Both the position numbers and the translations under genes were made by a program. The notes under the pieces are model-generated. The model made no database searches, was not told the origin of the DNA, and saw only the letters and a program-made list of their open reading frames with translations. A stretch of 63,180 nucleotides of DNA, filler included, from Folioceros fuciformis (lineage: Eukaryota): NCBI GenBank assembly GCA_049999805.1. It is 3 parts of 3 records of this genome, joined end to end, with 100 filler letters (N's around TTAATTAATTAA, not from the genome) between each part and the next. Parts side by side here need not be neighbours in the genome. Positions count along the whole stretch, not along the records: positions 1 to 21,383 come from JBNGIO010006342.1; 2 more parts are not named here. The stretch is one strand, 5' to 3'. This document shows positions 86 through 34,248 of this stretch, piece by piece (the stretch's first letter is position 1; each line of letters opens with the position of its first letter).

Positions 86-1072
86 CTAACTGCTGGGCCA
101 CAAGCCTGGTGGTGGCGGAGTTTCTCCATAGAGTAGCTTGAACGGGGCCACTCCTGTAGCAGCATGCTTCAACGAGTTGTACGCATACTCCAGCACAGGG
201 AGGAGTTCTTCCCACCTTGTTTGTTTCTCATGGGTGAAGTGACGAAGCATATCTTCCAGGACCTCGTTCTGTTTCTCAGTTTGGCCATCTGTCTCTAGGT
301 GATACGCTGACGACAAGTTTTGCTTGATGCCTAGGGTTTCCATGAAGGTTTTCCAGAACCCTGAGGTGAACTTAGGATCTCGGTCAAAGACGATGTCTTC
401 TGGGGCTCCATGTAACCTGAAGATTTCCCGGACGAAGACTCCAGCTTGCTTGGATGCTGTGATGGTGGAGGTCACAGGAACAAAGTAGCAGACCTTGGAG
501 AACCTGTCAGTGACCACCCAGATACTATCTTTTCTAGATCGGGTACGTGATCGGTGAGTGATGAAATCCATAGCAATTGACCTGAACCGTCCACTTGGAA
601 TTTGTAGGGGTAACAGCAGGCTCGGCGTCTTCTGATGGCTGGGCTTGGCTTGCTGACAGGACTGGCAAGAGCGCACCCATTCGATGCAGTCAACGCGCAT
701 CCCTTCCCAATGGAAATGTTCCTTGACCTTGGCATATGTCTTGTCAATGCCCAAGTGGCCCGAAATTGGTGAATCATGCATGTCATGTAGGATGGCTTGT
801 TTCAACTCCGTGAGCTGTGAAGGGATGACCAGTCTCCCCTTTCAATACACACAAGCATCCAGGAGTGAATACTGCTGGGTAAGTGCTGTAGGGACCCCTG
901 TCTGTGCATCTGTCAATAACTGTCTGTATAGTTTCGACAAGACTGGGTCATGGAGAATTCCATCCTGGACTAACTGGATTGTTTGTGTCTGGGTTCTCAT
1001 GAGGGTGCAGGCACGCCGACTCAAGGCATCTGCAACCACATTAGTTGAGCCTACTACATACTGGATTTCCAA
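86..1072 (-). pseudogene. Gypsy integrase (HHCC zinc finger plus DDE core)
   Basis: HDSPISGHLG...CQSC, AMDFIT, VFDRDPKFTSGFW, HLETDGQTE. The upstream YVVGSTNVVADALSR linker lies in a separate ORF (842-1072) ended by a stop. Confidence 0.93.
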
Positions 1073-1157
1073 GTGGTAGTCTGCCAGAGCTTCAGCCCAT
1101 CGTCGCTGCGAGCATTTAGATTGGGTTGAGAGAAGATCTAAATGTTAGATTGTTAGA

Positions 1158-2376
1158 CTAAAGATTAGAATGGTTGCTGCAAGGAGTGGTGGTCGGTATA
1201 ACACACCACTTTCTTCCCCAGGAGGTAATGTCGCCATACCTTAGGGCATGTGTAATGGCCAACATCTCCTTATCCTGCACTGGGTAGTTTAGTTGTGCTC
1301 CTTGCAACTTCCTGCTTTCGTAGGCGATTGCCCTTCCTTCCTGGGACAGAACTGCCCCTATGGCATAATCTGATGCGTCTGTGTGGATGGTGTATGGCAT
1401 GTGAGGATCTGCCACTGCCAGTACAGGCGTCGAGCCAAGGGCATGCTTCAGCTGCTCAAAAGCTACGACAGCCTTGGCTCCCAACTGGATGGGCTTGTTG
1501 GTGGAGTGCCGGAGGGCATCCGTCAGGGGAACAGCGATCCTGCAGAATCCCTTGATAAAGCGTATGTAGAAGCCGGCCATACCCAGGAACCCTCTGAGTT
1601 GGGTTATGTCCTGTGGCAAGGACCAGTTCATCACTGCGCTGACCTTACGTGTGTCAACCTGGATGCCCTCTGCACTGATCACATGTCCCAGGTATTCACA
1701 CTTTTCTCTCATGAAGACGCACTTGCTTCTCTAGCGGAACAGTGTGTTGGCCCGTAGCAAGTCCAGCACCTTCCTAACCAGCTGGAGATGGGTTTCAGGG
1801 TCAGGGGTGTAGATGAGAATGTCATCTAGGAAGGCTTCAACGCCATGTCCCAGCAAGCGTCGCAGCACTACCTGCATGAGACACTGGAAGGTGGCAGGGG
1901 CATTGGTAAGACCAAACAGCATTACCCTGAATTCGAAATGGCCATGTCGAGTTCGAAAGGCTGTTTTGTGTTCATCTCCTGACCTGATCCAGACCTGGTG
2001 GAAGCCAGATCTGAGATCAATCTTGGTGAACAGCTTGGCTCCACGCAATTGGTCGAGGATCTCGTTGATCCTTGGCATCTGGTAGACGTTTCTCACTGTG
2101 GGTCGATTGAGCCCTCGATAGTCTATGCACAGCCGCCATCCTCCATCTGGTTGCCACATTTGGTTTGGCAACCAAGAGGACTGGAGCACCAAAGGGTGAC
2201 ACAGAAGGTTGTACGAAACCCTTCTGTAAGAACTCATCAACCTGTTTTTTGATCTCTTCGTTTTCCATTGTAGATGTCCTGTAGGGCTGGACACTAACCG
2301 GTTTGTGGCCTGGAAGTAGCTCAATGGCATGGTCTACGATTCGTCGAGGAGGGAGCTCTGTGGGTTTAGCAAACAC
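1158..2376 (-). pseudogene. Gypsy reverse transcriptase and RNase H (frameshifted)
   Basis: WRLCIDYRGLN, KIDLRSGFHQ, FGLTNAPATFQ, FLDDILI, YLGHVIS, HTDASDYAIGAVL, YPVQDKEMLAI. Confidence 0.95.
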
Positions 2377-2568
2377 ATCCTAATACTCCTAGAGCAGGTC
2401 CTTCATCGGCTGTGGGAGCTGGTCCTCGTGGACCTTAGCTTCTGCGGCCCTTGACTCCGCAGTGCCTTCTAAGGGAAGCACCTTCTTGAGCTTTGCTATG
2501 TACATGAATCTGCCCATAGCAGTTGCTTTATTGAGAGCAGAGACAGCAAACAGTTGCTTGTCCGGGAG

Positions 2569-2934
2569 CTACTGTTCCCCCTGCATGACGTATGTCTGAT
2601 GGTCTTGCAGGAGGTGAACAACGTTTTTCTTCCAGTCCACCTCCAGCTGATACGAGTGACTGGCTAACCAAGGCTTGCCTATGATCAAGTCGTGGCAGAG
2701 CGAGGGCATCACGGTCAGCATGAGAACCTCCTTGAACCCTCCTGGAAAGGTAAGCTGTGCTTGTGTCCACTGTTCTCTCCTTGTCTCCTTCTTGCCTAGG
2801 GCTGTGACCACTGTGGAGACCTGACCTGTGTCCTTGACTAACAGGCCAGCTCGTTCTACAGCTGCCTTGGACACATAATGATGATTGGCCCCAAAGTCAA
2901 GTAGCCATGTGGCCCATACTCCGGCCAATGACAC
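2569..2934 (-). pseudogene. Retrotransposon aspartic protease
   Basis: LLDFGANHHYV (degenerate D-S/T-G) and DLIIGKPWL. Confidence 0.85.
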
Positions 2935-3044
2935 CTCAAGTTTGATAGGGATGTGAGCTAACTGGCATGCAGCAACTGATCCGAGTTTACTTGCAGGGTC
3001 AATGATGGCCGCAGCTAGAGTGGGTTCACTAACCTCTGTGAGGG

Positions 3045-3830
3045 TTATGACGTGTCCACTCTTGACAGGTGCTGGGGAGCGCCGCTCCTAGTGGACTTGC
3101 CTGTCTCGTTCAGCCAGCTTATGAAGTCTCTCCTGAGTGGGCATGATTTCGAACCATGTCCAAAGGTTGCACAAGTAAAACACTTCCTGGCCTTCTTGTA
3201 GTCTTCCTTCTCTTCCTCTATGAGGTTTTTGAAGGTGGGCTTCTTTTCTGTGGTGTTGGCAGACTTGCTCCACTTGGGCTTGGGAGGACCTGTTGAGGAA
3301 AGATGCTTGTACTTGTTGGTGCCATTGTTGATGGCTGCCTTCATGGCCTCTACCAAGGCTATGGGGTTTGTCTGGTTCACGTCTGCCCGCATCTCGAACC
3401 TCAACCCGTCGATGAACTTCTCAATTTTCTGTTCCTCGTCCAACCTAGGCATGTCCAGGGTAAGTTGTAAGAACTTGTCACAGTACTCTTGAATTGTGCC
3501 TTGTTGGAAGATCTTCCTGAACTGCTGATACAGGTCTTTGTGGTGGTTCTCTAGTAGGAACTGTTCGAGGAAGATCTATCGGAAGATTGGCCAAGAGTAG
3601 ATCGGGGACTCCATGCCGAGGTCGACTTGTTTCTCCCATTGGCACCACCAACGGTATGCATACCCCTCCAATGACATGATGTAGAACTGGATCTTTTGCA
3701 GGTCATCTTTGTCAGAAGCAGCAAGATATTTGTCAATTTTGTCTAACCAATCATGGACGCTCTGGGCATCCTTGGCTCCTCCATCGAAGGTAGTTGTCTT
3801 GACTTTCCGGTGGAGCTCCTTGTCCAGCTA
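3045..3830 (-). pseudogene. Retrotransposon gag with zinc knuckle
   Basis: KIEKFIDGLR and CFTCATFGHGSKSC (CX2CX4HX4C). Confidence 0.85.
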
Positions 3831-5168
3831 AGGCCTGGTTTTGAACTGGAAGTCCTCACCCTCTTGCGCTTTGCTGTTGGTTCTTCCCCGCTTGTTCTCC
3901 CAGTGTTCATACCTCATCAGCTGTAGGCGCCTGACCATGGCCTTGAGGTCCTTATTGTCCTTCTCGCAAGGTAAGAGTTCCACGACTAACCTCTTCAGTT
4001 CCACGTCTATTGTGCTCAAGTCACGTTCGCTAGGAATGGTTGGTGTGGCCCTTGCTTCCTTCCTACCCTCAAGAGCCTGACCCAAGGATGCCAAGGGAGT
4101 CGAATGGTGTGTGCCCTCAGCTGACTCAGTGGGCCTGGATGTCTTGTGGCAGGGTGAGAGTGGCGGGGGTCCTGGGGGTGATGTTTGCTCCAGCATCTGG
4201 AGCACACCCTCCAACTGCCTTTCTAGCCGCGTCTGCCCCTCCTCCACGTGGGCTTCGAGCCTGGCGATCGACTCCTCGACCTTCTCAAGTTGGTGGCTTT
4301 GGCCGGAGAGGGAGCTGCACGACTCCTCACAGGTATGTTCAACCCCGTGGGTCCTCCCTTCCAATTGCCGTAGAGCCGATTATTTGGCTAACTCCTCCTC
4401 TGGTGGGTCCTGGCCTCCTGTGGATACAGGTGGTTGGGGCCCGTTTAGGCCGATTCCACCTCGTTTCCGAGGCCGCCCTCGCCTCCTGGTCCCTGGTTCG
4501 GAGCAGTATTTGGCAGGAATACTCGTGGGTTCTGGCCCGGCTATTCCTTCCACCGGTTGGACCTCTGCCTCCGGTTGGATTTGGAGAAGGTGTGGGAGCT
4601 CCCGGCGTTGCCTCCTCGCCTCTTCTATCTCCAAGGAATCCTAGACTTGCCTCGACTCGACTCGCGCTTAGGTGGGAGTGAGGTGCCGGTCTTGGGAATT
4701 GGGTCCAAGTTGTTGCGCCCGCTGGCGGACCCGATTCCCTCCAGTGGATTCTCTCCTTCACTCCCGCTGGAAATCTGTCGGTCTCCCTCCAAAGTTAGGA
4801 TGTAGTCATTCATATTTCTGGCTGATCTGTGCGCAGATTACAGGTGTTCTCACGTTCAAAGTGGTTGCTAACCTTCTGGACGTGATTCTTTCCAGGCTTC
4901 CCCAACTACTGGCGCCTTCGAACCTGTCTAGCGCGGTAGGTCTGTTGACTCCTGCGGTCGCGTCTGCCTCCCTGCACTCAATCCGCCAGGGCGCGGGCTT
5001 GATTACTTCTTGGCGACCCGAGTCTTGGTTGGGATTGGTCCCTCCGCCACGCTAGGGGCTCCTGAATCATGGGGAGCCTCCTCCCTCTAGTACGGCTGAG
5101 CCTAGCCTCAGCGATCCTGTCCGCTGACTCCTAGATCCGGGGTCTGGGGCCTGGGAGTTGTTGGACAG

Positions 5169-5182
5169 TGGCTCTGATACCA
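5169..5182 (-). promoter_or_regulatory. Primer binding site complementary to tRNA-iMet
   Basis: Minus strand reads TGGTATCAGAGCCA, complementary to the 3' end of plant initiator tRNA-Met, immediately next to the LTR. Confidence 0.92.
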
Positions 5183-8990: not shown

Positions 8991-9222
8991 TCTTAGTTAA
9001 AACTTTAAATTCAATAAACTCTTGTACTTCTATATCTCCTTGGTCATCTTATCTTCGCTATACATATAACCTAAGGTCAATTTAGCTCAGAACACTGCCC
9101 GGAGGTCTGAACGCAAATCTAGGATTCACATCTCTTTTTTTTGGGTAACCAAGTGGGTCAATTTAGCCTAGCGGCATGTCGATCTTCCAAAATGTTTAAT
9201 GGATAAATTGAAGAGCTGATTG

Positions 9223-9295
9223 TGGAGAAGGCGGGCATCGATCCCGCTACCTCCCGTATGCGAAACGGGCGCTCTACCATTTGAGCTACTTCCCC
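9223..9295 (-). tRNA. tRNA-Ala(CGC)
   Basis: GGGGAAGTAGCTCAAATGGTAGAGCGCCCGTTTCGCATACGGGAGGTAGCGGGATCGATGCCCGCCTTCTCCA forms a full cloverleaf with anticodon CGC, the G3:U70 alanine identity pair and the ATCGA T-loop typical of tRNA-Ala. Confidence 0.95.
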
Positions 9296-9339
9296 GTGTG
9301 CTATAACATGGATCACTTTATATATATATATAGTTTTTT

Positions 9340-10250
9340 TACGCACAACGAACAGCACAGTCCATGCCACTTGTCCCTCAGCGGGAGTGCTCCCGAATGA
9401 ACGTTGTAAGGTCTGGAGTTGCATCAGGGTCATGGACGGGCTGCCATTTTTGCTGGACTGTATCATCATTCCAAGCAGGTCGTGGCCGTCGGGGATGCTC
9501 CTCGTCCTAGCCATTCAGTGCCTGAGCCCGGCCTTGTTAGAGAAAAGTGGCTGCCAGGAGGTAGAACGGTTGGAACCAGCGGTATCCGTTGCTCGTGACT
9601 TCGTAAGGGTACACTTCGGAGTACACTTGGAAATCCCTCTCCATCCTGAAAGTGGTGCTCTCCGCACAGGTTATGTGGAACTGCAGCATGATGAGATTGA
9701 CATCACTCTTCATTAATTCCTGGTGGTGGTATGTTTTACACTGGGCCTGATGCTGGAGATGTCTCCCGAACTGAACTGCAAGTGTATGATTCAGGACAAT
9801 GTTTGTTCGGAAAAACTCGGGCCAAGCACTGTGACACATATAAAAGGGTATCAGATATATGAGATATGGTGAACCTCCAGAATCCGAAGCTAAAGATCAC
9901 ACACCACTCCGAAGAAACTTAAGCAATATCTCCGCCTACACTGCATGCACAGCAGTTTATTTGCTCCTGAGGCCTCCAGGACTTCGAGTCTTAGTTTGTT
10001 GTATCTGCAGCATTTCAGTACAAGGTTTATTGAACAAGTGCGGACAGAAGACCTGTTTCCATTCAAGGTGATCACTGATTTCCATGTTTGTGGTCTGCCG
10101 ATATTCTGCGCTTATCTGAAAAATTTGTTGCCCTTGTACGACGTATCTACAATCTGTGTCTCGCAGGAAATCTGAGAGCCTCACTCCCTGCTCCCAGCAA
10201 AGTCTTGACGATGCACAGAACGAGGAGGTCGTCAAGCGGACCATTTTCAC
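9340..10250 (-). pseudogene. Degenerate F-box-like gene
   Basis: PLDDLLVLCI, then a frameshift, then SRLCWEQGVRLS resembles the F-box motif. Downstream fragments (MMIQSSKNGS) resemble F-box-associated repeats. No intact frame. Confidence 0.35.
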
Positions 10251-11014
10251 CTTGTGATGTCTTGGCCCTGCATCCCGGCTGCCCGAGTTCTTTCATCAGA
10301 GCTTCTGCTTATGCTCGCCACAGGATTTCCACTTGTCGGTCTGTGGCAGAGCGGCCACAACGGCGGTTCGGGCAGCTTTGACTAACGAGCTTCTTGTTTG
10401 GTGCTCAGCCGAAGGACCCGAACCTCGTCCCAAAGTCTGTCCTCGCACTGCCTTTTTCTATGTATTTCGACAATTCTTGCTCTTAGAGAACCTCATATAC
10501 GGTGCAAGTATGACCGCCATTGTGTGTTCCTGCGTGATGGCAGCACGGTGTCTCTGCGGGAGCGTATGGATCAGCAAAAGTTGCCGGGTCGAGAAAATGG
10601 CTGTAGTAAATCACAACAGCGCTCATCCTCGTTTCGAGAGAAGGTGCAGAGGCCTACCGTGTAGAGGTGGAGCAAATTGGCCTGGGATGATCGATCGCTT
10701 GGATTTGCACGAAACTCGGATATCTCCCACACCCTGAAATCGTTGGCTTCACATTGCAAATTCAGAAAGTGGAAAGAGCAAGCGTGCAAGCATCGATGCA
10801 GCTTTCTGAGCGTTCCACAGCAACAGATTGATGCACTTCATGTACAATTGTTATTTTGGTCTTTTGCAGAACGAAGAAACTTACAGGGCCGAATCGAGCT
10901 CTGTGTCTAGCAATGAAATATTCGTCGTCTACAACAAGCACAAACTCCTACTTTCTCTGTTCCGGTGACATTCATGTCTCCAGACTCGCTAAGCTTGGCC
11001 ACTGATGAAATCAC

Positions 11015-12230
11015 TCATCATGTGATGACACCCTGTGACGATAATTCCTCTCGCCACAGCGTCGAGAAAACCTCAGGAAACCACCACGAGAGTCAATTAT
11101 CGGCACAGGACATCACCATATGATATAAGTTTCGCAGCCGATAATCCGCTGACCTTGGCCATGCCTGGAATTTCTCATCATTCCATGACACCCTGTGCCG
11201 ATAGTTCCTCTCCTCATAGCCCAGAGAAAACCTTTACAAGCTACCACGAGAGTCAATTATCGGCACAGGACATCATCAAATGATAGACGCTTCTTCATCT
11301 CGCTAGGCTTGGCCGTTATTGATCCAGTCTCTTATCGTTCCAATGACACCCTAAGCCGATAACGCTTCCCGCGATGACTTGGAGAAGCTCCACAAGCCAT
11401 CACGAGAGTCGGTTACCGGCTCAGGAGGTCATCGAATGATAGACACTTCCTTCGTCTCGCTCAGCTTGGCCATTCATCGATCCAGTCTCTTATCTTTCCA
11501 ATGACACCCTATGCCGATAACGCCTCTCGCGATGACATGGAGAAAATCCCACAAACCATCACGAGAGTCAATTATCGGCACAGGAGATCACTGAAGGATA
11601 AACGTTTGCAGTCGATGGTGTCCCTGAAGTTGTCCATCCATCCACCCAGTCTCGGATCATTCCATGACACCCTGTGCCTATAGTGTCTCTCGTCATTGCC
11701 TTGACGAAAACGTCTAAAGGCCACCACGAGAGTCAATTATCGGCACAGGACGTCACTAAATGATTTTTGGTTGATCTCGCTAACCTTGGCCATCCATGGA
11801 ATCTCTCATCATTCCATGACACCCTGTGCCGACAGTGTCTCTCGTAACAGCCTGGAGAAAACCCCATAGCCCAACACGAGAGTCAATTGTCGGCACAGGA
11901 CGTCACTAAATGATAGACTTTTTGCAGTCGGTGATCTGGCCAAGCCATTCACCGATCGCATCTCTGATCATTCCATGACACCCTGTGCCGATAGTGCCTC
12001 TCGCAATAACCTAGAGTAGAGGAAACCCGCAAACCACCACGAGAGTCAATTGTCGGCTCAGGATGTCACTAAATGATACACGTTTGACAGTCGATGATCT
12101 CGCTACGCTTGGCCGTTTCGATCATTCCATGACATCCTGTGCCGACAGTGCCTCTCGTAGTAGCTTGGAGCAAACCCCACAACCCACCGCGAGAGTCAAT
12201 TATCGGCACAGGACGTCACTAAATGATGCA
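11015..12230 (-). ncRNA. Array of 8 tandem hairpins (150-165 bp period); candidate polycistronic miRNA precursor
   Basis: Each unit is TCATTCCATGACACCCTGTGCCGATAGT..CTCTCG, a ~30-nt loop, then CGAGAGTCAATTATCGGCACAGGACGTCACTAAATGA. Compensatory changes are present and most C.A mismatches become G.U pairs on the minus strand. The array and fold are seen directly; miRNA identity is inferred. Confidence 0.6.
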
Positions 12231-12379
12231 CATCTGGATAGCATCTCGTATCAGCAGGCACTCCTCGACACCCATCTCTTCCCTCATGGAGGCCTCTACG
12301 GACTCTCAGACAGGCAAGCTAAGATGATGAGATAGCTCATCATTTCACACCCCTCTGTTGGAGTTCCTCGGGGTAGCCT

Positions 12380-12930
12380 CAAGAAAACATCAACAAACAA
12401 GCCACCACCACGTAAAACCCCAACAAACCAGCGATCATCAGGGAGAACCTCAACAAACAAGCCACCATAAGTAAGAACCTCCACAAGCAAGCCACCACCA
12501 GTGGGAACTTGAACAAACAAACCACCACCAGGGAGAAGCTCAACAACAAGCCACCACCAGTGAGAGCCTCAACAAACAATACAACACCTGTGACGGCCTG
12601 AACACACGAGACACCACGAGTCAGAGCATCAACAGACATGCCACCACGAGTCAGAGGATCAACAAACAAGCCACCACCAGCCAGAGCATCAACAAACAAG
12701 CAACCAACACTCACAACATCAACAGACAAGTCACCACAACTCAGAGCATCAACAAACAAGCCACCGATACTTAGAGCATCAACAGACAAGTCACCACGAG
12801 TCAGAGCATCAACAAACAAGCCACCAATCCTCAGAGCATCAACAGACAAGTCACCACGAGTCAGAGCATCAACAAACAAGCCAAAAGCAGGAGAAGCTCA
12901 ACAAACAAGCCACCACCAGGGAGAACCTCA
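12380..12930. repeat. 30-bp minisatellite (~18 copies)
   Basis: AGAGCATCAACA(A/G)ACAAG(C/T)CACCAC... units give 10-aa periodic ORFs on both strands. Confidence 0.92.
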
Positions 12931-12935
12931 GCCTT

Positions 12936-13071
12936 GAGGGCTAGCTAAGGAAAGAACTGCTCTTGGGACGCCCCGAGGGCTAGCTAAGGAAAGAACTGCT
13001 CTTGGGACGCCCCGNNNNNNNNNNACGCCCCGAGGGCTAGCTAAGGAAAGAACTGCTCTTGGGACGCCCCG
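12936..13071. repeat. 39-bp perfect tandem repeat (at least 3 copies, gap inside)
   Basis: GAGGGCTAGCTAAGGAAAGAACTGCTCTTGGGACGCCCC. Confidence 0.95.
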
Positions 13072-13359
13072 TCCACAACCTGCCGCAAGGCAAGCTGCTC
13101 AGGCCATGTGACTTCGCTCCGAAACTTCTAAGCTGTGGTCGGATGGGAAACGCATCGCTTTATATACTGGTCATCTGAGGCATCCTTGAATGTTTGAACG
13201 GGAACATGACCCACCTCCACCCACCTAACTGACATGGTCGGTGGGCTGTACTTAGATAAAACTGTACATCATAGGTAAAAATAGGTCGGTGAATTCAAGT
13301 TCAAATGTTAATGGTGGGCCATGAGCATTTGTGATTCAAAGTGGAATGTACTCAAGTAT

Positions 13360-13715
13360 GCTTGGTATTTCGTTGGTAGTACGATGGTACCGAACTCAAA
13401 CGAAATACTGATGACAACAAGAATGTCTAGAACATGCCAGCTATCATGGTCGCAACAAGGACAGCTAGAAGAAGCAAATGATGCAACAACAATGGTATTT
13501 CGTTGGTAGAACAATGGTACCCAACTCAAACGAAACAAGGATGACAACAAGAACTTCTAAAAGATGCAACCCACAGCAAGCAACTGTTATGGTCCGAACA
13601 AGGATGACCAAAAGAGTAAAAGATGTAACTACAATGGTATTTCGTTGCTTGTATAATGGTACCCAACTCAAACGAAATGAGGATGATAGCAAGAATGTCT
13701 AGAAGATGCAACCCA
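13360..13715. repeat. ~130-140 bp tandem repeat, 3 copies
   Basis: TGGTATTTCGTTG...ATGGTACC(C/G)AACTCAAACGAAA occurs three times. Confidence 0.85.
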
Positions 13716-14014
13716 CTGCGAGGCACGATGACATAGAAGATGAGGCTAGCTACATGTTGTCATGTCTTCGACCTTGGATGACATTTAAGATTCTCGATCT
13801 ATGCAAATTACCCCGCTAGAGGCATAAGAAGTACATACCTAGGCAAGTAGGCAACCTTCCGAGTCACATCTAAGGGACAGGACAAAGGAATGCCTAAGCA
13901 AGCAAGTAGATGACGTTAAGTTGTCATAGAGGAGACGTGTGCAACCAAGTGAGTAGGCGATGTTAACTTGTCATGGTTAAGCATCTTTGTAGTCCAATGA
14001 CAAGGCGGACGAGT

Positions 14015-16060
14015 ACGCAAGTTGGTGAGTAAACACCTCTGCAACTCAAGGACAAGGCAAAGGAGTACCAAAGGAAGTTGGTGAGTAAACACCACTACAA
14101 CTCAAGGACAAGGCAAAGGAGTACCCAAGCAAGTTGGTAAGTAAAACACCTCTGCAACTCAAGGACAAGGTAGTCAGGCAAGTTGGTGAGTAAGCACCTC
14201 TGCAACTCAAGGACAAGGCAAAGGAGTACCCAACAAGGCAGAGAGGCAAGTGCGTGAGTAAGCACCTCCGCCACTCAAGGACAAGGCAGAGAGGCAAGTT
14301 GGTGAGTAAGCACCTCTGTGGCAGAGAGGACAAGGCAGAGAGGCAAGTTGGTGAGTAAGCACCTCTGCCACTCAAAGACAAGGTAGAGAGGCAAGTTCGT
14401 GAGTAAGCACCTCTACCACTCAAAGACAAGGTAGAGAGGCAAGTTGGTGAGTAAGCACCTCTGCAACTCAAGGACAAGGTAGAGAGGCAAGTTCGTGAGT
14501 AAGCACCTCTGCAAAGAGAGGCAAGTTCGTGAGTAAGCACCCTGCCACTCAAGGACAAGGTAGAGAGGCAAGTTCGTGAGTAAGCACCTCTGCAACTCAA
14601 GGACAAGGCATAGGAGTACCCAGCAAGGCAAAGAGGCAAGTTGGTGAGTAAGCACCTCTGCCGCTCAAGGACAAGGCAAAGGAGTACCCAACAAGGAAGA
14701 GAGGCAAGTTGGTGAGTAAGCACCTCTACCACTCAAAGACAAGGCAAAGGAGTACCCAACAAGGTAGAGAGGCAAGTTGGTGAGTAAGCACCTCTGCCAC
14801 TCAAGGACAAGGTAGAGAGGCAAGTTGGTGAGTAAGCACCTCTGCNNNNNNNNNNACTCAAGGACAAGGTAGAGAGGCAAGTTGGTGAGTAAGCACCTCT
14901 GCAACTCAAGGACAAAGTAGAGAGGCAAGTTGGTGAGTAAGCACCTCTGCAACTCAAGGACAAGGCAGAGAAGCAAGTTGGTGAGTAAGCATCTTTGGAC
15001 AAGGTCGAAAATACACAAGCAAGCTCACAAGCAAGGAAAACCTAACAACTCAAGGATAAGGTACAGGAGTACCCAAAAGGTGGCGAGTAATCGTAAACTT
15101 GTCATAACTCAAGAGGAGTACAGGCCAAGATATAACCCTGTGACAACTCAAGGACAAGGCAAAGGTGTACCCAATTAAACAAGCTGGTGAGTAACGTAAA
15201 CCTATGACAACTCACGGACAAGGCAAAGGAATACCCAACCAAGCAAGCTGGCAAGTTATGTAAACTTATGACAACTCTAGGACAAGGTAGAGCAGTACCT
15301 TACCAAGCAAGTTGGCCAGTAAGTAACGTAAAACCTATGACAACTCAAGCATAAGGTAGAGGAGTACTCAACCAAGCAAGCTGGCAAGTAATGTAAACCT
15401 GTGACAACTCAAGGACAAGGCAGAGGAGTACCCAAGCAAGTTGGCGAGTAAAGCAAACATGTGACAACTCAAGGACAAGGCAGAGGAGTATCCAAGTAAG
15501 TACAAGGACGAGGAGTACCCAAGCGAGTAAAGCAAACATGTGACAACTCAAGGACAAGGCAGAGAAGTATCCAAGCAAGTACAAGGACAAGGAGTACCCA
15601 AGCAAGCTAGCGAGTAAAGCAAACATGTGACAACTCAAGGACAAGGTAGAGGAGTACCAAAGCAAGTTGGCGAGTACCTTAAAGCTGCCAAAACTCAGGA
15701 CAAGGCAGAGGAGTACCAAAGCAAGTTGGCAAGTAACGTAAACCTGCTAAACTCAAGGACAAGGCAAGTAATGTAAACCTACTACAACTTGAAAAGAAGG
15801 CAAGTAATGTAAACCTGCTAAACTCAAGGACAAGGCAAGTAATGTAAACCTACGACAACTTGAAAAGAAGGCAAGTAATGTAAACCTGCTAAACTCAAGG
15901 ACAAGGTAAGTAATGTAAACCTATGACAGCTCAAAAAGAAGGCAAAAGAGTACCCAAGCAAGCTAGTGCGTAACATAAATGTGTGACAGCTAAACACTGT
16001 CACAACTTGACAAGGAGTGCTCAGGCAAGCAAGTAGGTGAGAAAAGTAAACATCCGACAT
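14015..16060. repeat. 48-bp satellite (14.0-15.0 kb) grading into diverged related units (15.0-16.0 kb)
   Basis: ACTCAAGGACAAGGTAGAGAGGCAAGTTGGTGAGTAAGCACCTCTGCA units with optional ~21-bp GGAGTACCCA inserts; later units keep ACTCAAGGACAAGG. Confidence 0.95.
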
Positions 16061-16374
16061 CTAAGTACATACACAACTCAACAAGCAAGTGGGTGAAAAA
16101 AAAAAAAAAATCTCTGACAACGTAATCACGTGGTGCCAAAGGGACAAGCAATACTTGAGCAAGTAGGTGAGCAAAACAAACCCCAACTCACATAAGGCAC
16201 GCGGCATCACAAGCGTGGAAAGTACCCAATGAGTTGGTGAGCAACGTGAAGTTCAGACAACCTATGATTGTCATAAGGACATAACAATACATGCTCCAAA
16301 GGTAGGATAACGTAAACTCACACAACATTGCTCCACTCTAGGGAGTGTAAGTTGTAACGTAAACTAGTGCCATA

Positions 16375-16680
16375 AATTCTGACAACGTAAACTCGTACGT
16401 CTTTACCCCACTATAGGGCCAGTAAGGTAAACTTGTGCCTTAAATTCCGACAATGTAAACACGTACGACTCTAACCCACTATAGGGCCAGTAAGGTAAAC
16501 TTGCGCCTTAAATCCTGACAACGTAAACTCGTACAACTCTACCCCACTGTAGGGCCATTAAGGTAAACTTGTGCCTTAAATTCTGACAACGTAAACTCGT
16601 ACGACTCTACCCCACTATAGGGTCGGTAAGGTAAACTTGTGCCTTAAAGTCTGACAACGTAAACTGGTACAGCGTACCCC
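16375..16680. repeat. 68-bp tandem repeat, ~4.5 copies
   Basis: GACAA(C/T)GTAAAC at 16381, 16449, 16517, 16585 and 16653. Confidence 0.92.
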
Positions 16681-16814
16681 ACAGCCGGCCTGTAACGTAA
16701 ACATGGCCCACAAGGTGTACTTCAAGACGTCCGTGAGCAAAGTAAACTTGTGGCAATCGATCACTACTCAAGGATGTGTAAGGAGTACAAGAAGAAGTTA
16801 AGTGAGCAACGTAA

Positions 16815-17580
16815 ACTTCTGACAACTGAGCACCACCCAACTGTAGAGAAGTAGATTCTAGAGCAAGCTGTTATGTACAAATTTCACCTCTGACAACTGA
16901 GCACCACCGAGTCGTAGAGGTGTAAATTCTAAAGCATTCTAGAGCAAGTTGTTATGTATAGATTTCAAACCATGGCACAGGCGTGGCTTCTAGAGCAAGT
17001 TGTTTGTACAAATTTTAAGTAGATGTGTAACTTCTAAAGCAAAGTTGCGTACAAATTTCAAACTTATGACATCCAAGCATGCCACAAGGACAAGGTGTGC
17101 CCAAGTGAAATAATTGTGGGTGCCCAACAAGGACAGGCATGCCCAAGAAGGAGAAGGTGTGCTGGCATGCTCACCAAACCCTACGGCTATCTACTTCCAC
17201 AAGGGAAGTCACAATAATAGCGACCTGGCAAGGGAGAAAATATGCTTACAAGAGATGAAAGTTGGGTTGGAGGTTTGTGGACTATATTACCATAGGTAAA
17301 CCAAGCCGTGTTGCAAACCTCTCAGGTATGGTGTACGTTCATTTGGGCAACATGGATCGGGTTGGAAGCTTCTTGAACATGCTACCATAGGTAAAGTGGG
17401 CCGGGTAGCAAACATCTCAGGTATGGTGTACTCTCGTATGTATGTGTAGAATGGAATGTGTAGGAAGCTTTTGGACCATACGGACTATGGTAGCGTAGAC
17501 AAATCGGGCCGAGTTGCAAAGCTCTCAAGTGTGATGTACCGGGTTGCAAGCCTCTCAGGTATTGTGTACTTCAGCATGGG
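16815..17580. repeat. Two further short degenerate repeat clusters
   Basis: TTCTAGAGCAAGTTGTT..TACAAATTT units (16.85-17.06 kb) and GTTGCAAA..CTCTCAGGTATGGTGTAC units (17.3-17.57 kb). Confidence 0.7.
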
Positions 17581-21215: not shown

Positions 21216-22631
21216 GCAAAGCAGCAGGAAGCCCATCTCGCTCGCGCAGCTCGACGCAGAGGCCAAAACCGCGGCTCGCCTCGCCTTGTGCTGCCGCGCA
21301 TTGTGCTCACCAGCTTCCCGCGCTCCTCGCAAATCGCTTCCTTCCGCCGCCCTCTCTCACTCTCAGCTTCCCCTTCCCTTCCGNNNNNNNNNNNNNNNNN
21401 NNNNNNNNNNNNNNNNNNNNNNNNNNNTTAATTAATTAANNNNNNNNNNNNNNNNNNNNNNNNNNNNNNNNNNNNNNNNNNNNCATCCACGGCCAAGGCC
21501 CTAGCATAAACCGTAAACTGACGTGACTACTTAGATCTGAAGATGAGCATGCATGTGTTGAAACAATGAGATGGCGCTGAAGTTTTGAACCTACCCATAT
21601 TTCTTTCTACAAGCACAAATGGCTGGTGTGGATTTTTATGTTCACCAGCTAAACATTAGTATCCAAACCCAAAGCAGACATATGTGTTCTTTGAAGAAAC
21701 CATTCTACCATATCCTCTCTCTCTCTGTTTTGGTATGCCATACAAACATTAAGTACTTGAATTGAAGAAACCTTGTTAAGCACATCATATCCATATGAAA
21801 ACAATAACCTATAATAAATAAAAAATATTCTAAAGAAACTTCATAAAATTTAAGCGAGTTAGTTTAAAAAATTTAACTGCAATAATTTACATGTAATCTT
21901 TTTTTGTGCTTGATACATACAATAAGGGAACTTCAAGGTTATAAACATAATTAATAATAATAATAGATAATTAAAATATATTTAATAATATTATAATAAA
22001 TATTTGAGTATATTTTATATTTATATATAGATAATATAATAATAATTACTACTCAAATTAATTTTAGGTAATGAGATTTAGAGATTTAATAATGCAAAGA
22101 ACGAGGAAACCTTACAAGAAAAGGGGAGATAAAAATATATCTACTCAAGAAAAGAAATATAGACGATCCAATAATATGCACGTACATATTTTTATAGATA
22201 TACCTAATTATTTAAATATATAGTTAAAATGTAGGTATATTCCATGCTACAGGTTTATGTATCTTTCTACTGAATCAAAACACCCTTATGAATGTAAGTA
22301 TAGTTGTAGCTTGTAGACCTATGTTAGAGCAAACCGGGCAAAGGAGGAACACGGGTGCAGGAGTGTGGGAAGTTCAGGCAGCGGCAGGCGACGAGAATGT
22401 GTGGTATGGATCAGGCATGAAGCTTGGAGCCTCCAAACCGGTGAGGAAAGCGGAGTTGCAATTGGCGGTTGAGAAGGACTGCGGCCTCTTTGGAGGAGAA
22501 GAAGAATGCAGAGGCGAGGGAGGCGGCTAGCCTAGGTAGCTGGAGACGGAGGCTTCGGCCGAGGCGGAGCAGGACTGGACAGGTGAAGAGGGTTTGTCGG
22601 CGCGCAAGCAGGCGTGGGAGTGAGCTCAACA

Positions 22632-23087
22632 ATGTTCTATGGGGCATCTGTGTGGGATCCGTGGCTCATCGTCGCACAAATCTGCTGCATCCAGTGCCTC
22701 TACTACCTGAGCCTGGGGGCCATGCTGTGGCTGTTTGTGGGATCGCAGATTCCCAAGCTATCGCTCAGCTACTTCTTCGATGCCTCGCTCCTGTCTGTGG
22801 CCAGCATCACCGGCTGGGGCACCATGGCCGCCTTCTTCCTCAACTCCTTCGTCGGGGCTGGATTCCTCCTGCTGCTGGTGGAGCGCACCAAAAAGTGCCT
22901 TGACTTCACTGCCACTATGTACATCATCCACCTCTTCCTGTGCCTCATGTACGCCGGTTTCCCGACCTCCATCGCCTGGTGGCTACTCAACGGCTGCGGC
23001 CTGGCCATCATGGCTCTTCTTGGAGAGTGGCTCTGCATGCGGAGGGAGATGCGGGACATTCCTATCAGATCTCGTTCCAATGTGTGA
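22632..23087 (+). CDS. SYS1: SYS1 Golgi integral membrane protein (151 aa, intronless)
   Basis: MFYGASVWDPWLIVAQICCIQCLYY...VERTKKCLDFTATMYIIHL...LGEWLCMRREMRDIP is the plant SYS1 signature. Confidence 0.93.
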   Translation: MFYGASVWDPWLIVAQICCIQCLYYLSLGAMLWLFVGSQIPKLSLSYFFDASLLSVASITGWGTMAAFFLNSFVGAGFLLLLVERTKKCLDFTATMYIIHLFLCLMYAGFPTSIAWWLLNGCGLAIMALLGEWLCMRREMRDIPIRSRSNV

Positions 23088-23394: not shown

Positions 23395-25054
23395 CTACAT
23401 AACCTCGCCAGGGGGAAGCTCTGCCAGTTTGGCTGGCTGTCCTAACATTTTCTCCATGTCATATCGAACTTCGATGTTCCTGATGCTGTAACCGACCACC
23501 ATGAGCCAATACAGGAGCTTGGCCAGCTCTGCTGCGGATGTTTCCGTCGCCGCCCTCTGGCAGAGGCGCAGCAGGTTAGTTCTGTGCAGGGAAGGGATAT
23601 AAAACGCTTAACCCCTCGAGGTCTGAATACCCACCTTCAGTTGCATCGGATCGGAGATGCCCAGCAAACGCTGGATGAAGGTATTCATGGCTTCCAAAGC
23701 ATCTTCTCCAGCGCTGCTCGTCAGTTGCTGTCATGAGACCATAGCCACGAACGTCAGAACTACAGAGTGGGACACCGCAAATATTCTTCTGACAGCGGAC
23801 AAAAGTGCGTGTATGCGACGACACCTGCAAATTCTGTGGCTCAAGGCTTTTCAGATACTCGAGCAACGGGTTCCTGCCGTGCGACGCCCGTCGTTGCTGT
23901 TCAAGCTCCCTTTTCAGCTCCTGCACTTCACTCTCGAGCAATTCGATGTACTCAACAGCGTCCATCTCGATTGGCCCATCCACCTTGTGCCACCTCAGAA
24001 CCTCGCCACTGACTTTCTTCTTCTGAACTCCAGGTTCGAACTGCACAGTTGGAGCAGCCACAGTTGAGGATCTCGAACCCAACCAAGGGCACGTCTGTTT
24101 CGCTCAGCATGCTCCCACCGAAACGAACCTCCTTACCTCCTGCTTATCAGGACCAGGTAGGGCAACCTGAGCCAGACTCTGCTGCAACTCTAACCGGTAC
24201 TGAGCGTTTCGGAACATGTAGCCAGTCATAAGCACGCTATACATGAGCTGTGCCAGATTCTCTGCAACCTGCCCTCCTCCAGCATCACCGCCCATCACAA
24301 ATAAGATCCTGAATCTGTGGAATCTCAACCATGAGCCAAGGACAAGCGGAAAAGCCTATCTCCACCCACCGTGGATACCGTCATGTCAAAGAATTGTGGA
24401 GGAAGTGTCCCAAGCATATTGGTCACTGTCTGCCGCATTCCCTCTACAACCTGCACCACAGCAACAATGCTGAACAAAAAATCAGGGCAACGGAAAAGGG
24501 GCCAAATCCAGCTCCCACCACACGACACCAAAGGAGCCAAGCAGGCCGAACCTGGTCAGGGGCTCCGTTCACAAACCGCTCCATGAACTCGGGTTGCACA
24601 TTCTTCACATACTCCAGCAACATATCCCGGCGGCTCTTGAACTGCCCAGTCCAATGCCAGCATCAACATGACAGCAGCCCACTTGAATCCACATCCTCCA
24701 ATTCAATGCGATCACAGCAGCAGCAGGAGGAATGAAGGAAGGAAGGAAAGAACAAGAGTGGCAAACCATTGGTGTACTGGGCACCGCACCGTCAGCGGAG
24801 GCGCCATTCGGAGAGGGTTGATCGGAAGCAGAGGCAGCGCAGCACCAGGAGGCCCTCCTAGGGCGGGCCACCCCAATCCCAATCCCATCCCTGCACGGCG
24901 CAGCAGCCCAGAGGTGATGCCTCGCTGCCCTGGCGCAGCAGCACGATCTGGCGGCGTACGAGGTCGATGCATGGCTCTGCCCTCGCTTCGATGGCAGAGC
25001 GGAAGCAGTGCCCAACATCATGAGCCGCACCTGGCTGCCGCCCAACACCTCCAT
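23395..25054 (-). CDS. DUF760 family protein, probably plastid-targeted, 7 exons
   Basis: Exons 25054-24767, 24641-24552, 24450-24370, 24268-24137, 24040-23825, 23727-23635 and 23556-23395, all with GT-AG introns. Motifs LLEYVKNVQPEFM, MRQTVTNMLGTLPPQFF, YSVLMTGYMFRNAQYRLEL, LLEYLKSLEP, LMVVGYSIRNIEVR. The start codon is tentative. Confidence 0.9.
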
Positions 25055-25921
25055 GCCGGCCCACGGCTCTGCCGATGCCTGCTCCCCGCCCTGCTCTTGG
25101 ATTTAGCACGGACTTGTCACCAGGAACCCGGGGCATGCCATGAATCGCTTTACACCAGCTTGTGGGTTTTTTTGTGAAGAAAATTTGAGCCCTAGTGCCA
25201 GAAAGAAGTGAGCTGATTGTGGCGCTTTCCAAGCTGTGCATTCAGCCGGGCATCACAAGCTCAGTGCCTACCTCAATTATTTTCCAGATTCTGCATCCTC
25301 AGCTGGCCCCGCATGTCTGTCTCTCTATTTCCATTGCTGCAGCAACCAAAGTCAGTGCCGTCCGTCCCCAACCCATCGAAGCTCGCGCCTTGAGTTAGTC
25401 ATGGCGTCAAATCACGTCCATCCCAAGTCTCCTACTGGCAGAAGAAAAGGATATTATTAAGCCTCAATAAGGACGGATTTCCCACAAAAGAAAAACACGT
25501 GGCACAAATTCCATAACCCTAGGTAGACTTTCTGTTATAGACAAGAAAATGTCCATCCTAGTAAACACGAATTAAGAAGTTCTTTTTCTTTATATTTTAA
25601 TTAGAAATTAAAATTAAAAAATGAAGATATATATACATATGATTTTCTAACTTTAATGAAATTTTGGATCATATCTTCTTCCTCTCGTCAATAGAGTCGA
25701 TATATTTAGTATCTTATGGTTTTGGTAGTTTGTGTATAGTAGTTTTAGGTTATAGTTAATTTTAGAAAACTATCTAAAAGGGACAATTGAGGTCTATATA
25801 TAGAGCAAGTTAAACTACATACTCTTATCATTCATTTCTTAAACATTCTGAACATCCTTGTTATCATTCACGATCAAACCTCGTTCGTTGCATTTGCTAA
25901 GTATTTATAGTGGGCAACAAG

Positions 25922-26878
25922 ATGACGAGACTATTTAGGATTTCGAGACAATCTAGAATTTCAAGACAATCTAGGATCTCAAGACAATCTAGGGCTAACA
26001 ATTCTAGTCTCCAAGCCCAAAATCATGGTGAAGAAGTTATCCAACAACTTCAGCAAGACATCTCATATTACGAGGCTGAATCTAGTCGAAGAAACAGCGA
26101 TGAAACAACCACACATGAGGAACAACAATTGAGTCAAACAAGCTCGCAAATACCTGAAGCTGCACATTCATCAAATCCAAACCAAGACATGGACGTGACA
26201 GGAAGCCAAATACTCGGTGACGCAGAGGCAGGAAGCCAAATACTCGGTGATGCAGAGGCAAGAAGCCAAATGCTCGGTGACGCAGAGGCACAAAGCCAAA
26301 TACTCGGTGAAGCAAAGGCACAAGGAGAAGCAGAAATGATACATGTTGAATACAAATATGGATTATGCATGTCATTTGCAATTCATCTCACATCTGAACA
26401 AGGGCAAAGTGTGAATATAAGTAAAACAAAGATAGATGAAACGAAGTATGAATCAATCTTCCAAAACACACTAAAATCACAAGATATTCATATAGCATTT
26501 TGGATTACGCCACCAACACCAAATCTTAGGCCTATAGTTGTGATATGTTTACCGAGAAATGTACGGTTAATCCGAAGTAATATTGGTGATGAGAGGTTCC
26601 TTATGATTTCTAAACGCCATGTACTTATTTCTTCTTCAAATGATGTTTGCTCTATATGTTTGGAACACCCTTCTTTGAAGCATATTAAATATCTTTGTCC
26701 TTGTTGTAAGAATTATTTTCACATAGAATGTCTCTTGAAGTGGTTATATTATAATACTTCATGCCCACTTTGTAGAAACACTATTATTCATCGTTTAGGT
26801 GTAAAAAAACAAGGTCCAACCCTAAATCAAGATCAAGGGGGACCAACCCTCCGCAGACAAAGATCCTCACCTAATTGA
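25922..26878 (+). CDS. RING-H2-like zinc-finger protein (putative E3 ligase), intronless, with N-terminal repeats
   Basis: CSICLE...CKNYFHIECLLKWLYYNTSCPLCR; RISRQS x3 and SQILGDAEA x4; TATA-like CTATATATAG near 25794. Confidence 0.7.
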   Translation: MTRLFRISRQSRISRQSRISRQSRANNSSLQAQNHGEEVIQQLQQDISYYEAESSRRNSDETTTHEEQQLSQTSSQIPEAAHSSNPNQDMDVTGSQILGDAEAGSQILGDAEARSQMLGDAEAQSQILGEAKAQGEAEMIHVEYKYGLCMSFAIHLTSEQGQSVNISKTKIDETKYESIFQNTLKSQDIHIAFWITPPTPNLRPIVVICLPRNVRLIRSNIGDERFLMISKRHVLISSSNDVCSICLEHPSLKHIKYLCPCCKNYFHIECLLKWLYYNTSCPLCRNTIIHRLGVKKQGPTLNQDQGGPTLRRQRSSPN

Positions 26879-32400: not shown

Positions 32401-34248
32401 GTGTCGAGAGGCACTCGTGAGTTTTGGTAGTTTGCAGAGGTTTGATTAATTTTGATAAGAGCAACTAGGGCCACAAGTTGGGGTGAGGTTAGGTTAGAGT
32501 CGGGTTAGGTCAGAGTTAGGGTTAGGATTAGGTCGGAGTTAGGTTTAGGGTTTTGACGAGTGGAGGGTTCTGTCTGAGGCGTGCTCACCTGGTAAGGCAG
32601 TGGTAGGGGTTCTTGGCCAAGGAGGTATAAGAGGCTAGGCCTGTCACTGAGGGGGGGGAGGTTTTTTGGTGAGAGCTCCCTTGACCTTGTGTGCAGGCTG
32701 CTGGGTTAGAGGGTTAATCCAGTGTGCAGATGCACCTCGGCCTTAATTCCCCATGCCACTAGGGGAACGTGACGGCTCCCAAAATTGCTGAGATCTGGGT
32801 GGCCAGATCCGCAAGGGCTGACCTTTCTTGCATGCTGGTTGGGTGGTTGGGGTACCTTGCCGTCCCTAAGGGGTTTCCAAGGCGACAGATTGCAAGGCTG
32901 TGAGTCGAGGAGGCTATCCAGCCCGGGTCTGCACATCCCTACCTCAAGGACTGCAAGTGAGGGGCTGTTGTGTTCTAAAATCCATGAGTGAAACGTGAGA
33001 GTGAAGGGCTAAATAAAGAGCTAAAGTGCTGGAGTAGAGATTTGAAGTGCTGGAGCTTGGAGTTGGCGTGCTGAGGTGAGGAGCGTAGGTGCTGAAGTTC
33101 ATAATCAGCTGCTAAGGTGGCTGGCATTTAGGGCTAAGAGTGGAGGCTGAGGCTGAGGCCAGCCAATAGAAGCTCTTGGTGATGCAAGCTTCAAGGTGAA
33201 GTTAACCAAGGTTATGGAGCAGAAAATGTATTCAAGAAAATGGTTCACATGCATCACCATGTGGGCTAGTGAGTGTGAAAACATTTTGGGCAACTCGAGC
33301 AAGAATATTACCATGAAGTTGGGCCAGACCAGAGAAAGCGTTTCTTGGTGTTAGGTTTTGGGTGTTTCGTGATTTTGGTTGTCACTTATGTATTGAGGTG
33401 ATAACCACTTCGGACCTTTTGGAACTTTGTATAGCTATGGAGGGAACCTTGTTTGTGAGTGAGTGTGTGTTACGAGGTGATGTGTTTGGAGGTTTTAATG
33501 TGATTTTATTATATTAAAATCTTTGCTTAAAGTAAGAACAGATATGAGAAGAGAATAGAGGATTTATGAGGAGAGAAGAGAGGATTTGGGAAGGAGAGAG
33601 TTTGTATTGTAAGATTTCGGGATGGAAGTATTGGGGGTTGCGCGGGAGGCGCATGGGGACATACAACGGACCAAGGTCGGCACGTGGCGTGGTGAGGATG
33701 GCTTCCTCTACGCACACGCTGGAGGTGGATCATGGCCGTCGGGGCAGATGGCCGGCGGGGAACTCCACCACGTCGGATAACCTGCCGGGCCCGGGAACCC
33801 GACAGAGCGAGCCTGCACCGGTAGAATAATGTTTGTTCAGGGAAAGGTGGGGCGTAACCAGGGGGGGACCCCTGGGGTGGGACACCTCCGGCAAGGGGTA
33901 AAGCGGTTGGGGGGTACCCGAGGCGGGCGCCACCCAGGGCAGAATATAACCAAGCTGGATTGACAGCAGCAGTCCGTGCACCAGACTGAGCTGATCCCCC
34001 GCTGCCGTGGCCTCCTCTCTTCCAATCCTCGGCTGCTGCGTCCTGCCAGGACGGAGCCAATCCGGCGACAATGCAGCTGGCTGATTAGTTGGGTTGTGAG
34101 GCGGAGGGGGCGTGGGCGGCTTTGTGGACGGAGGGGGGACTGCTCTGGGTTCGGACGCACGGAGTAGACTGTGCAGTTCGCCTGCATTGCGCTGCATCGC
34201 ATTGCAGGGGTGCAAGTCTGGTTGTAGCAGACCCAAGTCCAGCAGAGG

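Follow-up and report, generated by a model that had tools for sequence, protein, structure and literature searches.

Clusters of homologous miRNA genes in land plants

Plant microRNA (miRNA) genes of one family that lie close together usually form clusters of two or three hairpins, and the largest in the lists of one survey has eight, in rice (MIR395m-s,x; Merchan et al., PMC2812943). As that survey describes them, the MIR395 clusters carry up to eight paralogous hairpins on one strand within ~0.5-1 kb, are thought to have been born by successive duplication, yield the same miRNA from each hairpin and are probably read as one transcript. Genes of this sort also exist in non-seed plants: the part of a review that treats bryophytes gives ~25% of the miRNAs of Physcomitrella patens as polycistronic (PMC9291395, citing Axtell et al. 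2007) and mentions one polycistronic locus in Marchantia polymorpha, made of two unrelated precursors (pre-miRNAs). Here we describe an array of eight tandem units of ~155 bp, each an imperfect hairpin, in the nuclear DNA of the non-seed land plant Folioceros fuciformis. It occupies positions 11016-12231 of the stretch of DNA that was analysed (hereafter the window), 63,180 nt from assembly GCA_049999805.1 in which three record parts are joined with 100 N between them; positions 1-21,383 are JBNGIO010006342.1, and adjacent parts of the window need not be genomic neighbours. Our best reading, which has about an even chance of being right, is that the minus strand of the array would encode a polycistronic MIRNA-type precursor of a new, lineage-specific family.

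The likeness to Osa-MIR395m-s,x lies in the layout, with many paralogous hairpins following each other on one strand, and in number the eight Folioceros hairpins equal the largest homologous cluster that Merchan et al. list for rice, poplar and Arabidopsis (PMC2812943). The array differs from MIR395 in its sequence family, its non-seed host, its longer units and its longer and more perfect stems. Eight homologous hairpins also go far beyond the bryophyte cases described in the review, the two-hairpin locus of Marchantia included (PMC9291395). On every structural count that could be tested the array fits the homologous polycistronic MIRNA clusters, of which it is a candidate member.

A second kind of relative is formed by young plant foldbacks, near-perfect precursors of MIRNA or hairpin small interfering RNA (siRNA) type, which, from Allen et al. 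in 2004 to later work, are said to originate in inverted duplications. They share with the array long, almost perfect stems and restriction to one lineage. The array is set apart from them by a short hairpin (113 nt), an eight-fold repetition and a guide-like peak of conservation, and no parent gene of the hairpin was found within the window.

Eight hairpins built for the minus strand

Each unit carries on one arm a version of the same 21-mer. An initial annotation of this DNA had claimed eight of them at intervals of 150-165 bp, identical in five units, and all eight lie exactly where it had put them (Table 1), with start-to-start spacings of 160, 156, 159, 165, 150, 163 and 150 bp; a pattern search returned the same five exact copies. 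When up to three mismatches are allowed, the pattern is matched seven times against 0.01 expected, and none of 100 shuffles reaches seven. Tandem Repeats Finder (TRF) reports periods of 150 and 158 bp (single unit) and of 313 bp (two-unit) over 11236-12231. In a repeat-family search, families D7 and D8 are the two arms, or halves, of most units, and units 6 and 8, which are ~90% identical (family D11), belong to a two-unit higher-order repeat.

As minus-strand RNA each unit folds into a hairpin of 113 nt, and the RNAalifold consensus of the eight is one continuous helix of 47 bp with a loop of ~7 nt. The eight imperfect stems that had been announced are present when folded, whereas the dimensions given for them, a ~40-bp stem and a ~30-nt loop, do not hold for this strand: a loop of ~30 nt exists on the plus strand only. 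All 16 folds (eight units on two strands) are more stable than every one of 200 dinucleotide shuffles. The minimum free energy (MFE) of the units runs from -49.1 to -65.6 kcal/mol on the minus strand and from -36.2 to -51.3 kcal/mol on the plus strand; the minus strand is favoured in every unit, by 7.6-19.7 kcal/mol, and the fold of the whole array reaches -629.9 on the minus strand against -500.4 on the plus strand. When the whole window is scanned in frames of 120 nt, those of the array are among the most stable; the rest of the 40 most stable frames fall mostly at ~30-34 kb, with a few at 24.8-25.0 kb and two further right. The inverted repeats found within 9-26 kb are those of the array, one artefact of a run of N and one AT palindrome, and no others.

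The strand is decided by the pair counts. Taken as minus-strand RNA, the 376 pair cells of the alignment comprise 286 Watson-Crick pairs, 66 G:U, 9 A:C and 15 others, so that standard pairs make up 93.6%. In the DNA, and likewise in plus-strand RNA, Watson-Crick pairs fill only 76% of the cells, which makes the arms poor inverted repeats. The remark in the initial annotation that most plus-strand mismatches are C.A holds good, since 66 of the 90 non-Watson-Crick cells are G:U on the minus strand. Among the columns listed, nine have G:U in at least four units and none has A:C in as many, and this shared excess is the pattern that would be expected if A:C arises equally often and is then removed over time.

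These counts bear on an alternative that we hold to be unlikely, namely that the array is a functionless minisatellite. A chance inverted-repeat unit, be it the remnant of a transposon or a ~155-bp satellite monomer, would have been amplified by slippage or unequal crossing-over; its strand bias would then reflect asymmetric mutation, and its compensated pairs template switching or chance. Nine shared G:U columns with no A:C counterpart argue against such an origin, as do arms that are much more complementary as minus-strand RNA than as DNA.

Conservation and processing geometry

Pairwise identity between the units varies strongly along the hairpin. The candidate 21-mer, on the 5' arm, is the best-kept segment (0.92), and the segment opposite to it on the 3' arm stands at 0.80; the two sides of the basal stem have 0.78 and 0.89, those of the distal stem 0.70 and 0.63, the loop 0.59 and the flanks 0.40-0.47. 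Of the 18 columns that face each other in the duplex, 4 vary on the 5' arm and 9 vary on the 3' arm. A peak on one arm would be the typical profile of MIRNA paralogues, whereas a neutral minisatellite should decay evenly along its unit.

The same profile bears on another alternative, which we also rate as improbable: a hairpin-siRNA or 'proto-miRNA' locus, whose minus-strand hairpins are diced imprecisely, by enzymes of the DCL2/3/4 type or by a sloppy DCL1, into a population of siRNAs. Stems of 47 bp that are 93.6% paired could hold two 21-nt duplexes one after the other, the units are young (6 and 8 being ~90% alike), unit 7 has more than five unpaired positions in its guide, and no known Rfam family matches; all of this would suit imprecise dicing. 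By contrast, conservation is higher in the 21-mer than in its partner and much higher than in the distal stem, which speaks for a single specific product, and the length of the basal stem together with the 5' U fits precise cutting from base to loop.

In the eight MFE folds the distance from the first paired base up to the start of the 21-mer is 15, 15, 15, 15, 14, 15, 12 and 14 nt, so that the ~15-nt lower stem that had been claimed below a 5'-U 21-mer was found again, at 12-15 nt. In the account given in PMC10602918, base-to-loop cutting by DCL1 is measured by a basal stem of ~15-17 bp. Precursors of this class have such a stem below the duplex, with unpaired RNA on its flanks, and the eight units go with the class: seven have 14-15 nt below the 21-mer and unit 7 has 12 nt. 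The candidate guide begins with U in all eight units, and in seven of them this U forms a U:G wobble. A weak U:G 5' end, facing a strand that itself begins with G, would favour loading of the strand from the 5' arm. Both the 5' U and the weak pair at position 1 are consistent with predicted loading into AGO1 and dependence on DCL1.

The criteria attributed to Axtell and Meyers in 2018 reportedly admit as miRNA precursors single foldbacks of at most 300 nt whose duplex is not broken by a secondary stem or a large loop. The miR/miR* duplex is said to have at most five mismatched positions, of which at most three in asymmetric bulges, and the 20-24-nt miRNA and miRNA* to show 2-nt 3' overhangs and at least 75% precision in replicate libraries. 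The Folioceros foldbacks, with their 47 consensus pairs in a single helix, are well below that length and are not interrupted. With cut sites predicted on the MFE folds, the unpaired guide positions number 3, 5, 3, 3, 4, 3, 6 and 3, hence at most five in seven of the eight units. As for the cluster itself, a covariance model made from the units gives eight minus-strand hits of 116-142 bits, all of one family, on one strand and at the short spacing of 150-165 bp.

The initial annotation had stated that loops and spacers diverge more than stems. This is so, but the spacers are not free to vary. Within 11129-12118 they share a core of ~17 nt on the minus strand, with ends that vary in length and sequence, and a gapped alignment gives 65% pairwise identity over aligned columns. 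The plain MIRNA model does not require such a core. It would have a place in an undiced, structured long non-coding RNA, in which the hairpins bind, for example, double-stranded-RNA-binding proteins and the spacer motif provides a second site; strand-specific structure would be expected there too. We nevertheless regard this as very unlikely. No known class of such RNAs fits, the geometry and the 5' U match the rules of Dicer and Argonaute without any extra assumption, and a plant hairpin this long and this perfect is expected to be diced.

Covariation and the weight of the evidence

Pairing across the alignment is better than in shuffles, where paired cells amount to 90.7% (0 of 500 reach the observed 93.6%), and shifting the partner by 1-3 columns lowers it to 33-50%. 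Pairs in which both sides have changed number seven, where shuffles give 2.6 (0 of 500 reach seven). Two of the double changes that had been read from the sequence are real: in unit 3, column 36/109 passes from U:A to A:U, and in unit 6, column 42/103 passes from U:A to C:G, where U:G in unit 8 and C:A in unit 7 are possible intermediates. The double change ascribed to unit 4 is not a strict compensation and resolves into one C:G replacing U:G and a C:A mismatch at column 20/126.

Several observations weigh against a miRNA precursor. The covariation signal is real but small, because the arms of all units are so alike, and for the same reason an alternative register is possible: arms of adjacent units pair, and the spacer between them forms the loop. 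A 5' arm set against the 3' arm of a neighbouring unit is 91.5% or 90.6% paired, against 93.6% within the unit, and the distal stem accounts for most of what own-unit pairing gains (90.6%, but 86-87% with a neighbour). The alternative register has a similar total energy, though it gains less per nucleotide, and in the MFE fold of the whole array six of the eight units take the proposed register, units 7 and 8 the alternative one. When each unit is folded on both strands, as the initial annotation had proposed, energy favours the minus strand throughout, but the z-scores resemble each other (-5.9 to -9.7 on the minus strand, -4.6 to -9.4 on the plus strand). They are similar because shuffles rich in G and U fold well too; energy alone therefore leaves the strand undecided, and the strand call rests on absolute energy and on the count of G:U against A:C. 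In that count, the rare changes (in at most three units) show a weak bias, with 12 G:U columns and 8 A:C columns. The GC signature of plant miRNAs, in the form set out in PMC7102948, appears in part (G or C at 6 of 8 favoured positions, A or U at 1 of 4), and we give it no weight. Long, near-perfect stems also fit young plant hairpins diced imprecisely to siRNAs. Finally, the array stands at the head of 6 kb of unrelated minisatellites. One of these, with a 30-bp repeat, arose from the hairpin unit, and replication slippage could by itself have produced the eight units.

Much of this is what a functionless minisatellite would predict: pairing between neighbours that nearly equals pairing within units, little bias in the rare columns, a position amid at least six other tandem arrays (12386-17548), a 30-bp array derived from the hairpin unit and a two-unit higher-order duplication. 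Its monomer is also nucleosome-sized. On the other side, CpG is not depleted in the array (observed/expected 0.94), whereas it is in the neighbouring arrays (0.19-0.32), the window as a whole having 0.59 and the Ty3 element at its left end 0.48; this contrast lends weak support, since each unit is a copy of the others. The block of neighbouring arrays is without other inverted repeats, and there is no sign of other copies of the unit in the window or among the contigs of the DNA run described below.

Of the initial proposal of a lineage-specific polycistronic MIR locus, the structural part stands, that is, the strand-specific hairpins, the geometry of basal stem and 5' U, the best-kept 21-mer and three to five unpaired positions in seven of the eight units, along with the want of a further copy in the window and of a matching Rfam family. 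Its covariation is small, and the identity as a miRNA stays that of a candidate.

Copy number and comparison with known families

Searches with blastn-short found no further copy of the unit in the window, and the covariance model returned there the eight minus-strand hits and their plus-strand shadows only. On 9000-16000, the contigs of a DNA sequencing run, X1, number 48 at a likeness of at least 85%; 41 of them are at 99% or above and none is below 90%. Among these contigs no diverged paralogue falls on the array, and no alternative letters are listed inside it. Depth per contig is 4.0-7.1 on the array and 4.7-9.9 on the flanks, which gives no sign of excess, although depth is not copy number. 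The array is probably a low-copy, single locus. The case foreseen by the initial annotation, hundreds of copies belonging to a transposon, finds no support in the window and the X1 contigs, a genome-wide count being outside the scope of the analysis.

To three further readings we give hardly any credit. The array could consist of subterminal repeats from a DNA transposon, it could be a group of tiny inverted-repeat elements, or it could be a polycistronic cluster of box C/D small nucleolar RNAs (snoRNAs). Short inverted motifs at intervals do resemble the subterminal repeats bound by transposases, yet no transposase was found among the 20 open reading frames (ORFs) scanned and no terminal inverted repeat nearby, and no extra copy was found in the 63-kb window, nor a diverged one on the array among the X1 contigs. 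The snoRNA reading draws on a C-box-like word at the 3' base of some hairpins, although a box C/D cluster would show both boxes and a short terminal stem in each unit. It was rejected: the word occurs in only three of the eight units (minus strand), no snoRNA model comes near threshold, and no D-box word was seen in four spacers read by eye. A ribozyme was likewise rejected.

An independent run from a second study, X2, has contigs that match the array and its surroundings with no difference (Table 1); the array is therefore not an artefact of assembly. Over 10741-12709 these contigs have two gaps between them, no single contig extends over the entire array, and, the library type not being on record, they are not counted as expression. 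X2 also leaves 9468-10403 and 12744-14849 without cover, and such holes prove nothing. Its contigs total 48.6 million letters against 289.9 million for X1, so that X2 is suspected to be a transcriptome, a lead and not evidence of expression. In runs X5 and X6 of the same study, from two other organisms, no contig matches at 85% likeness, which does not prove absence. Two degenerate motifs taken from the arms had no hit in scans of metagenomes.

The array does not read as coding sequence: all frames are broken, and the longest open ones across it have 101 and 106 amino acids. The latter, across units 7-8, was compared with 5.8 billion proteins as a probe for similar arrays in relatives and brought up three candidates, none at E <= 0.01. 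A search for targets within the window, scored as for plant miRNAs, returned the array itself alone.

At gathering thresholds, Rfam 15 finds only a transfer RNA (tRNA) in the window and no family on the array. Among its MIR models, conserved families included, none reaches even E 10 on a sensible register. The best hit below threshold is mir-3718 (RF03952), a hairpin of similar size to the units of the array, with 31.7 bits against a gathering threshold of 78. It covers 12039-12158 in the alternative register, over two units and alike on both strands, and it is explained by that register's pairing of neighbouring arms; it is a generic resemblance between hairpins, not membership. The 21-mer and six 16-mers, spelled with U or T and on both strands, are absent from the searchable texts of papers, a scope that leaves out supplementary miRNA tables, miRBase and PmiREN.

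Genomic setting

The features of the window are collected in Table 1; the interval that contains the array, from 5.2 to 22.5 kb, is poor in genes. To the right of the hairpins stand a degenerate half-unit and the 30-bp array derived from the unit, which mark the locus as prone to slippage. The 30-bp minisatellite is probably part of the same precursor if transcription begins further right, and a TATA-like word upstream of both arrays is a possible promoter element. The block at 12386-17548 comprises six or more unrelated tandem arrays, whose periods are 30, 39, 48/56/68, 59-79, 35/71, 68 and ~100 bp. Its plus strand is rich in purines and in A, its CpG is strongly depleted (0.19-0.32), and it lacks inverted repeats. 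A run of N at 13015-13024, an assembly gap, sits inside the 39-bp repeat just right of the arrays, and another run of N is found at ~21384-21480.

A Ty3/gypsy-type retroelement is cut by the left end of the window. The notion that the array could be its long terminal repeat was rejected: the primer-binding site, 5.8 kb away, puts that repeat just right of 5182, with a tRNA-Ala gene in between, and the array is therefore outside the element.

Further right, two genes, SYS1 and PRP6/STABILIZED1, appear to be intronless. Among the matches listed, the PRP6/STABILIZED1 frame has 82-85% identity with proteins of liverwort, clubmoss and Sphagnum, and 72-79% with those of fern and seed plants, values that point to a non-seed land plant as host. 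The region 30000-34100 (plus strand) reaches 64% GC at 30-32 kb and has a strong G skew, with many long open frames overlapping each other on the two strands. It gives, on the plus strand, the most stable folds of the window, at -55 to -69 kcal/mol per 120 nt, and two ORFs scanned there have no Pfam match. At 24800-25120 (minus strand) several 120-nt frames reach -53 to -55, against -33 to -47 on the plus strand, and overlapping ORFs there are without Pfam match.

Table 1. Features of the Folioceros fuciformis window and stretches covered by independent contigs (positions in the window; MFE in kcal/mol).
Feature	Position	Strand	Remarks
Hairpin unit 1 (113 nt)	11016..11128	-	MFE -51.5, z -6.66, 0/200 shuffles as good; covariance model 124 bits
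Hairpin unit 2	11176..11288	-	MFE -55.9, z -8.71; 127.8 bits
Hairpin unit 3	11332..11444	-	MFE -64.8, z -9.71; most diverged; compensated changes 36/109 A:U, 46/100 C:G
Hairpin unit 4	11491..11603	-	MFE -60.0, z -9.55
Hairpin unit 5	11656..11768	-	MFE -57.7, z -9.44
Hairpin unit 6	11806..11918	-	MFE -64.4, z -9.00; column 42/103 C:G
Hairpin unit 7	11969..12081	-	MFE -49.1, z -5.86; weakest; 6 unpaired candidate-guide positions
Hairpin unit 8	12119..12231	-	MFE -65.6, z -9.13; TRF period 313, family D11
Candidate mature 21-mer (5' arm, 5' U), unit 1	11090..11110	-	exact consensus
Candidate 21-mer, unit 2	11250..11270	-	exact
Candidate 21-mer, unit 3	11406..11426	-	4 differences from consensus
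Candidate 21-mer, unit 4	11565..11585	-	exact
Candidate 21-mer, unit 5	11730..11750	-	exact
Candidate 21-mer, unit 6	11880..11900	-	1 difference
Candidate 21-mer, unit 7	12043..12063	-	2 differences
Candidate 21-mer, unit 8	12193..12213	-	exact
Degenerate ninth half-unit	12326..12400	-	one arm and distal part, without 21-mer arm; aligns with units 2, 6, 8
30-bp minisatellite, 18 copies	12386..12930		continues from distal-stem part of half-unit; TRF, alignment
TATA-like word, upstream of arrays	13158..13167	-	read from sequence
X2 contigs (independent run, second study)	10741-11112, 11086-11272, 11246-11628, 11762-12195, 12402-12709		0 differences each
Ty3/gypsy-type retroelement, cut by left end of window	86-5182	-	frames broken into several ORFs; CpG observed/expected 0.48
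Ty3 integrase	86-841	-	ORF domain scan
Ty3 reverse transcriptase	1731-2333	-	ORF domain scan
Ty3 gag	3045-3575	-	ORF domain scan
Ty3 primer-binding-site match	5171-5182
tRNA-Ala (CGC) gene	9222-9295	-	Rfam 60.7 bits; 1.7 kb from array, same strand
ORF without Pfam match	10258-10737		looks random
SYS1	22587-23087	+	one uninterrupted frame, apparently intronless
RING-finger frame	25901-26878
PRP6/STABILIZED1, N-terminal ubiquitin-like domain	55856-59191	+	one uninterrupted frame, apparently intronless

A proposed precursor and its meaning

If the array is a MIRNA-type precursor, its working can be pictured as follows. One long transcript made by RNA polymerase II would run from right to left over the 30-bp array and the eight hairpins. 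On each hairpin a basal stem of ~15 nt would guide a DCL1-type Dicer, which would cut from base to loop and free a 21-nt duplex with the predicted ends. The strand from the 5' arm, with its initial U and weak U:G 5' end, would then be loaded into an AGO1-type Argonaute. Five hairpins would deliver the same guide and three would deliver variants of it; we therefore propose that the array mainly raises dosage.

A stronger form of this reading, which we put forward tentatively and hold to be rather doubtful, is that the array represents a new, lineage-restricted miRNA family of a non-seed land plant, in the form of a single polycistronic gene of eight hairpins that is still expanding. Signs of expansion would be the two-unit higher-order duplication, the decayed ninth unit and the 30-bp minisatellite born from the distal stem.

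Should the product not be a miRNA, what is left would be a short dyad-symmetric minisatellite of little consequence. If the reading is true, the array would add to the land plants a new miRNA family and a homologous polycistron of a size unusual for plants other than flowering plants. In addition, it would be a clear natural example of the growth of a MIRNA gene by tandem duplication under selection for RNA pairing, where a comparison of sister hairpins reveals G:U intermediates and compensated pairs, and it would offer a compact scaffold of eight hairpins from a lineage with few MIRNA gene structures known.

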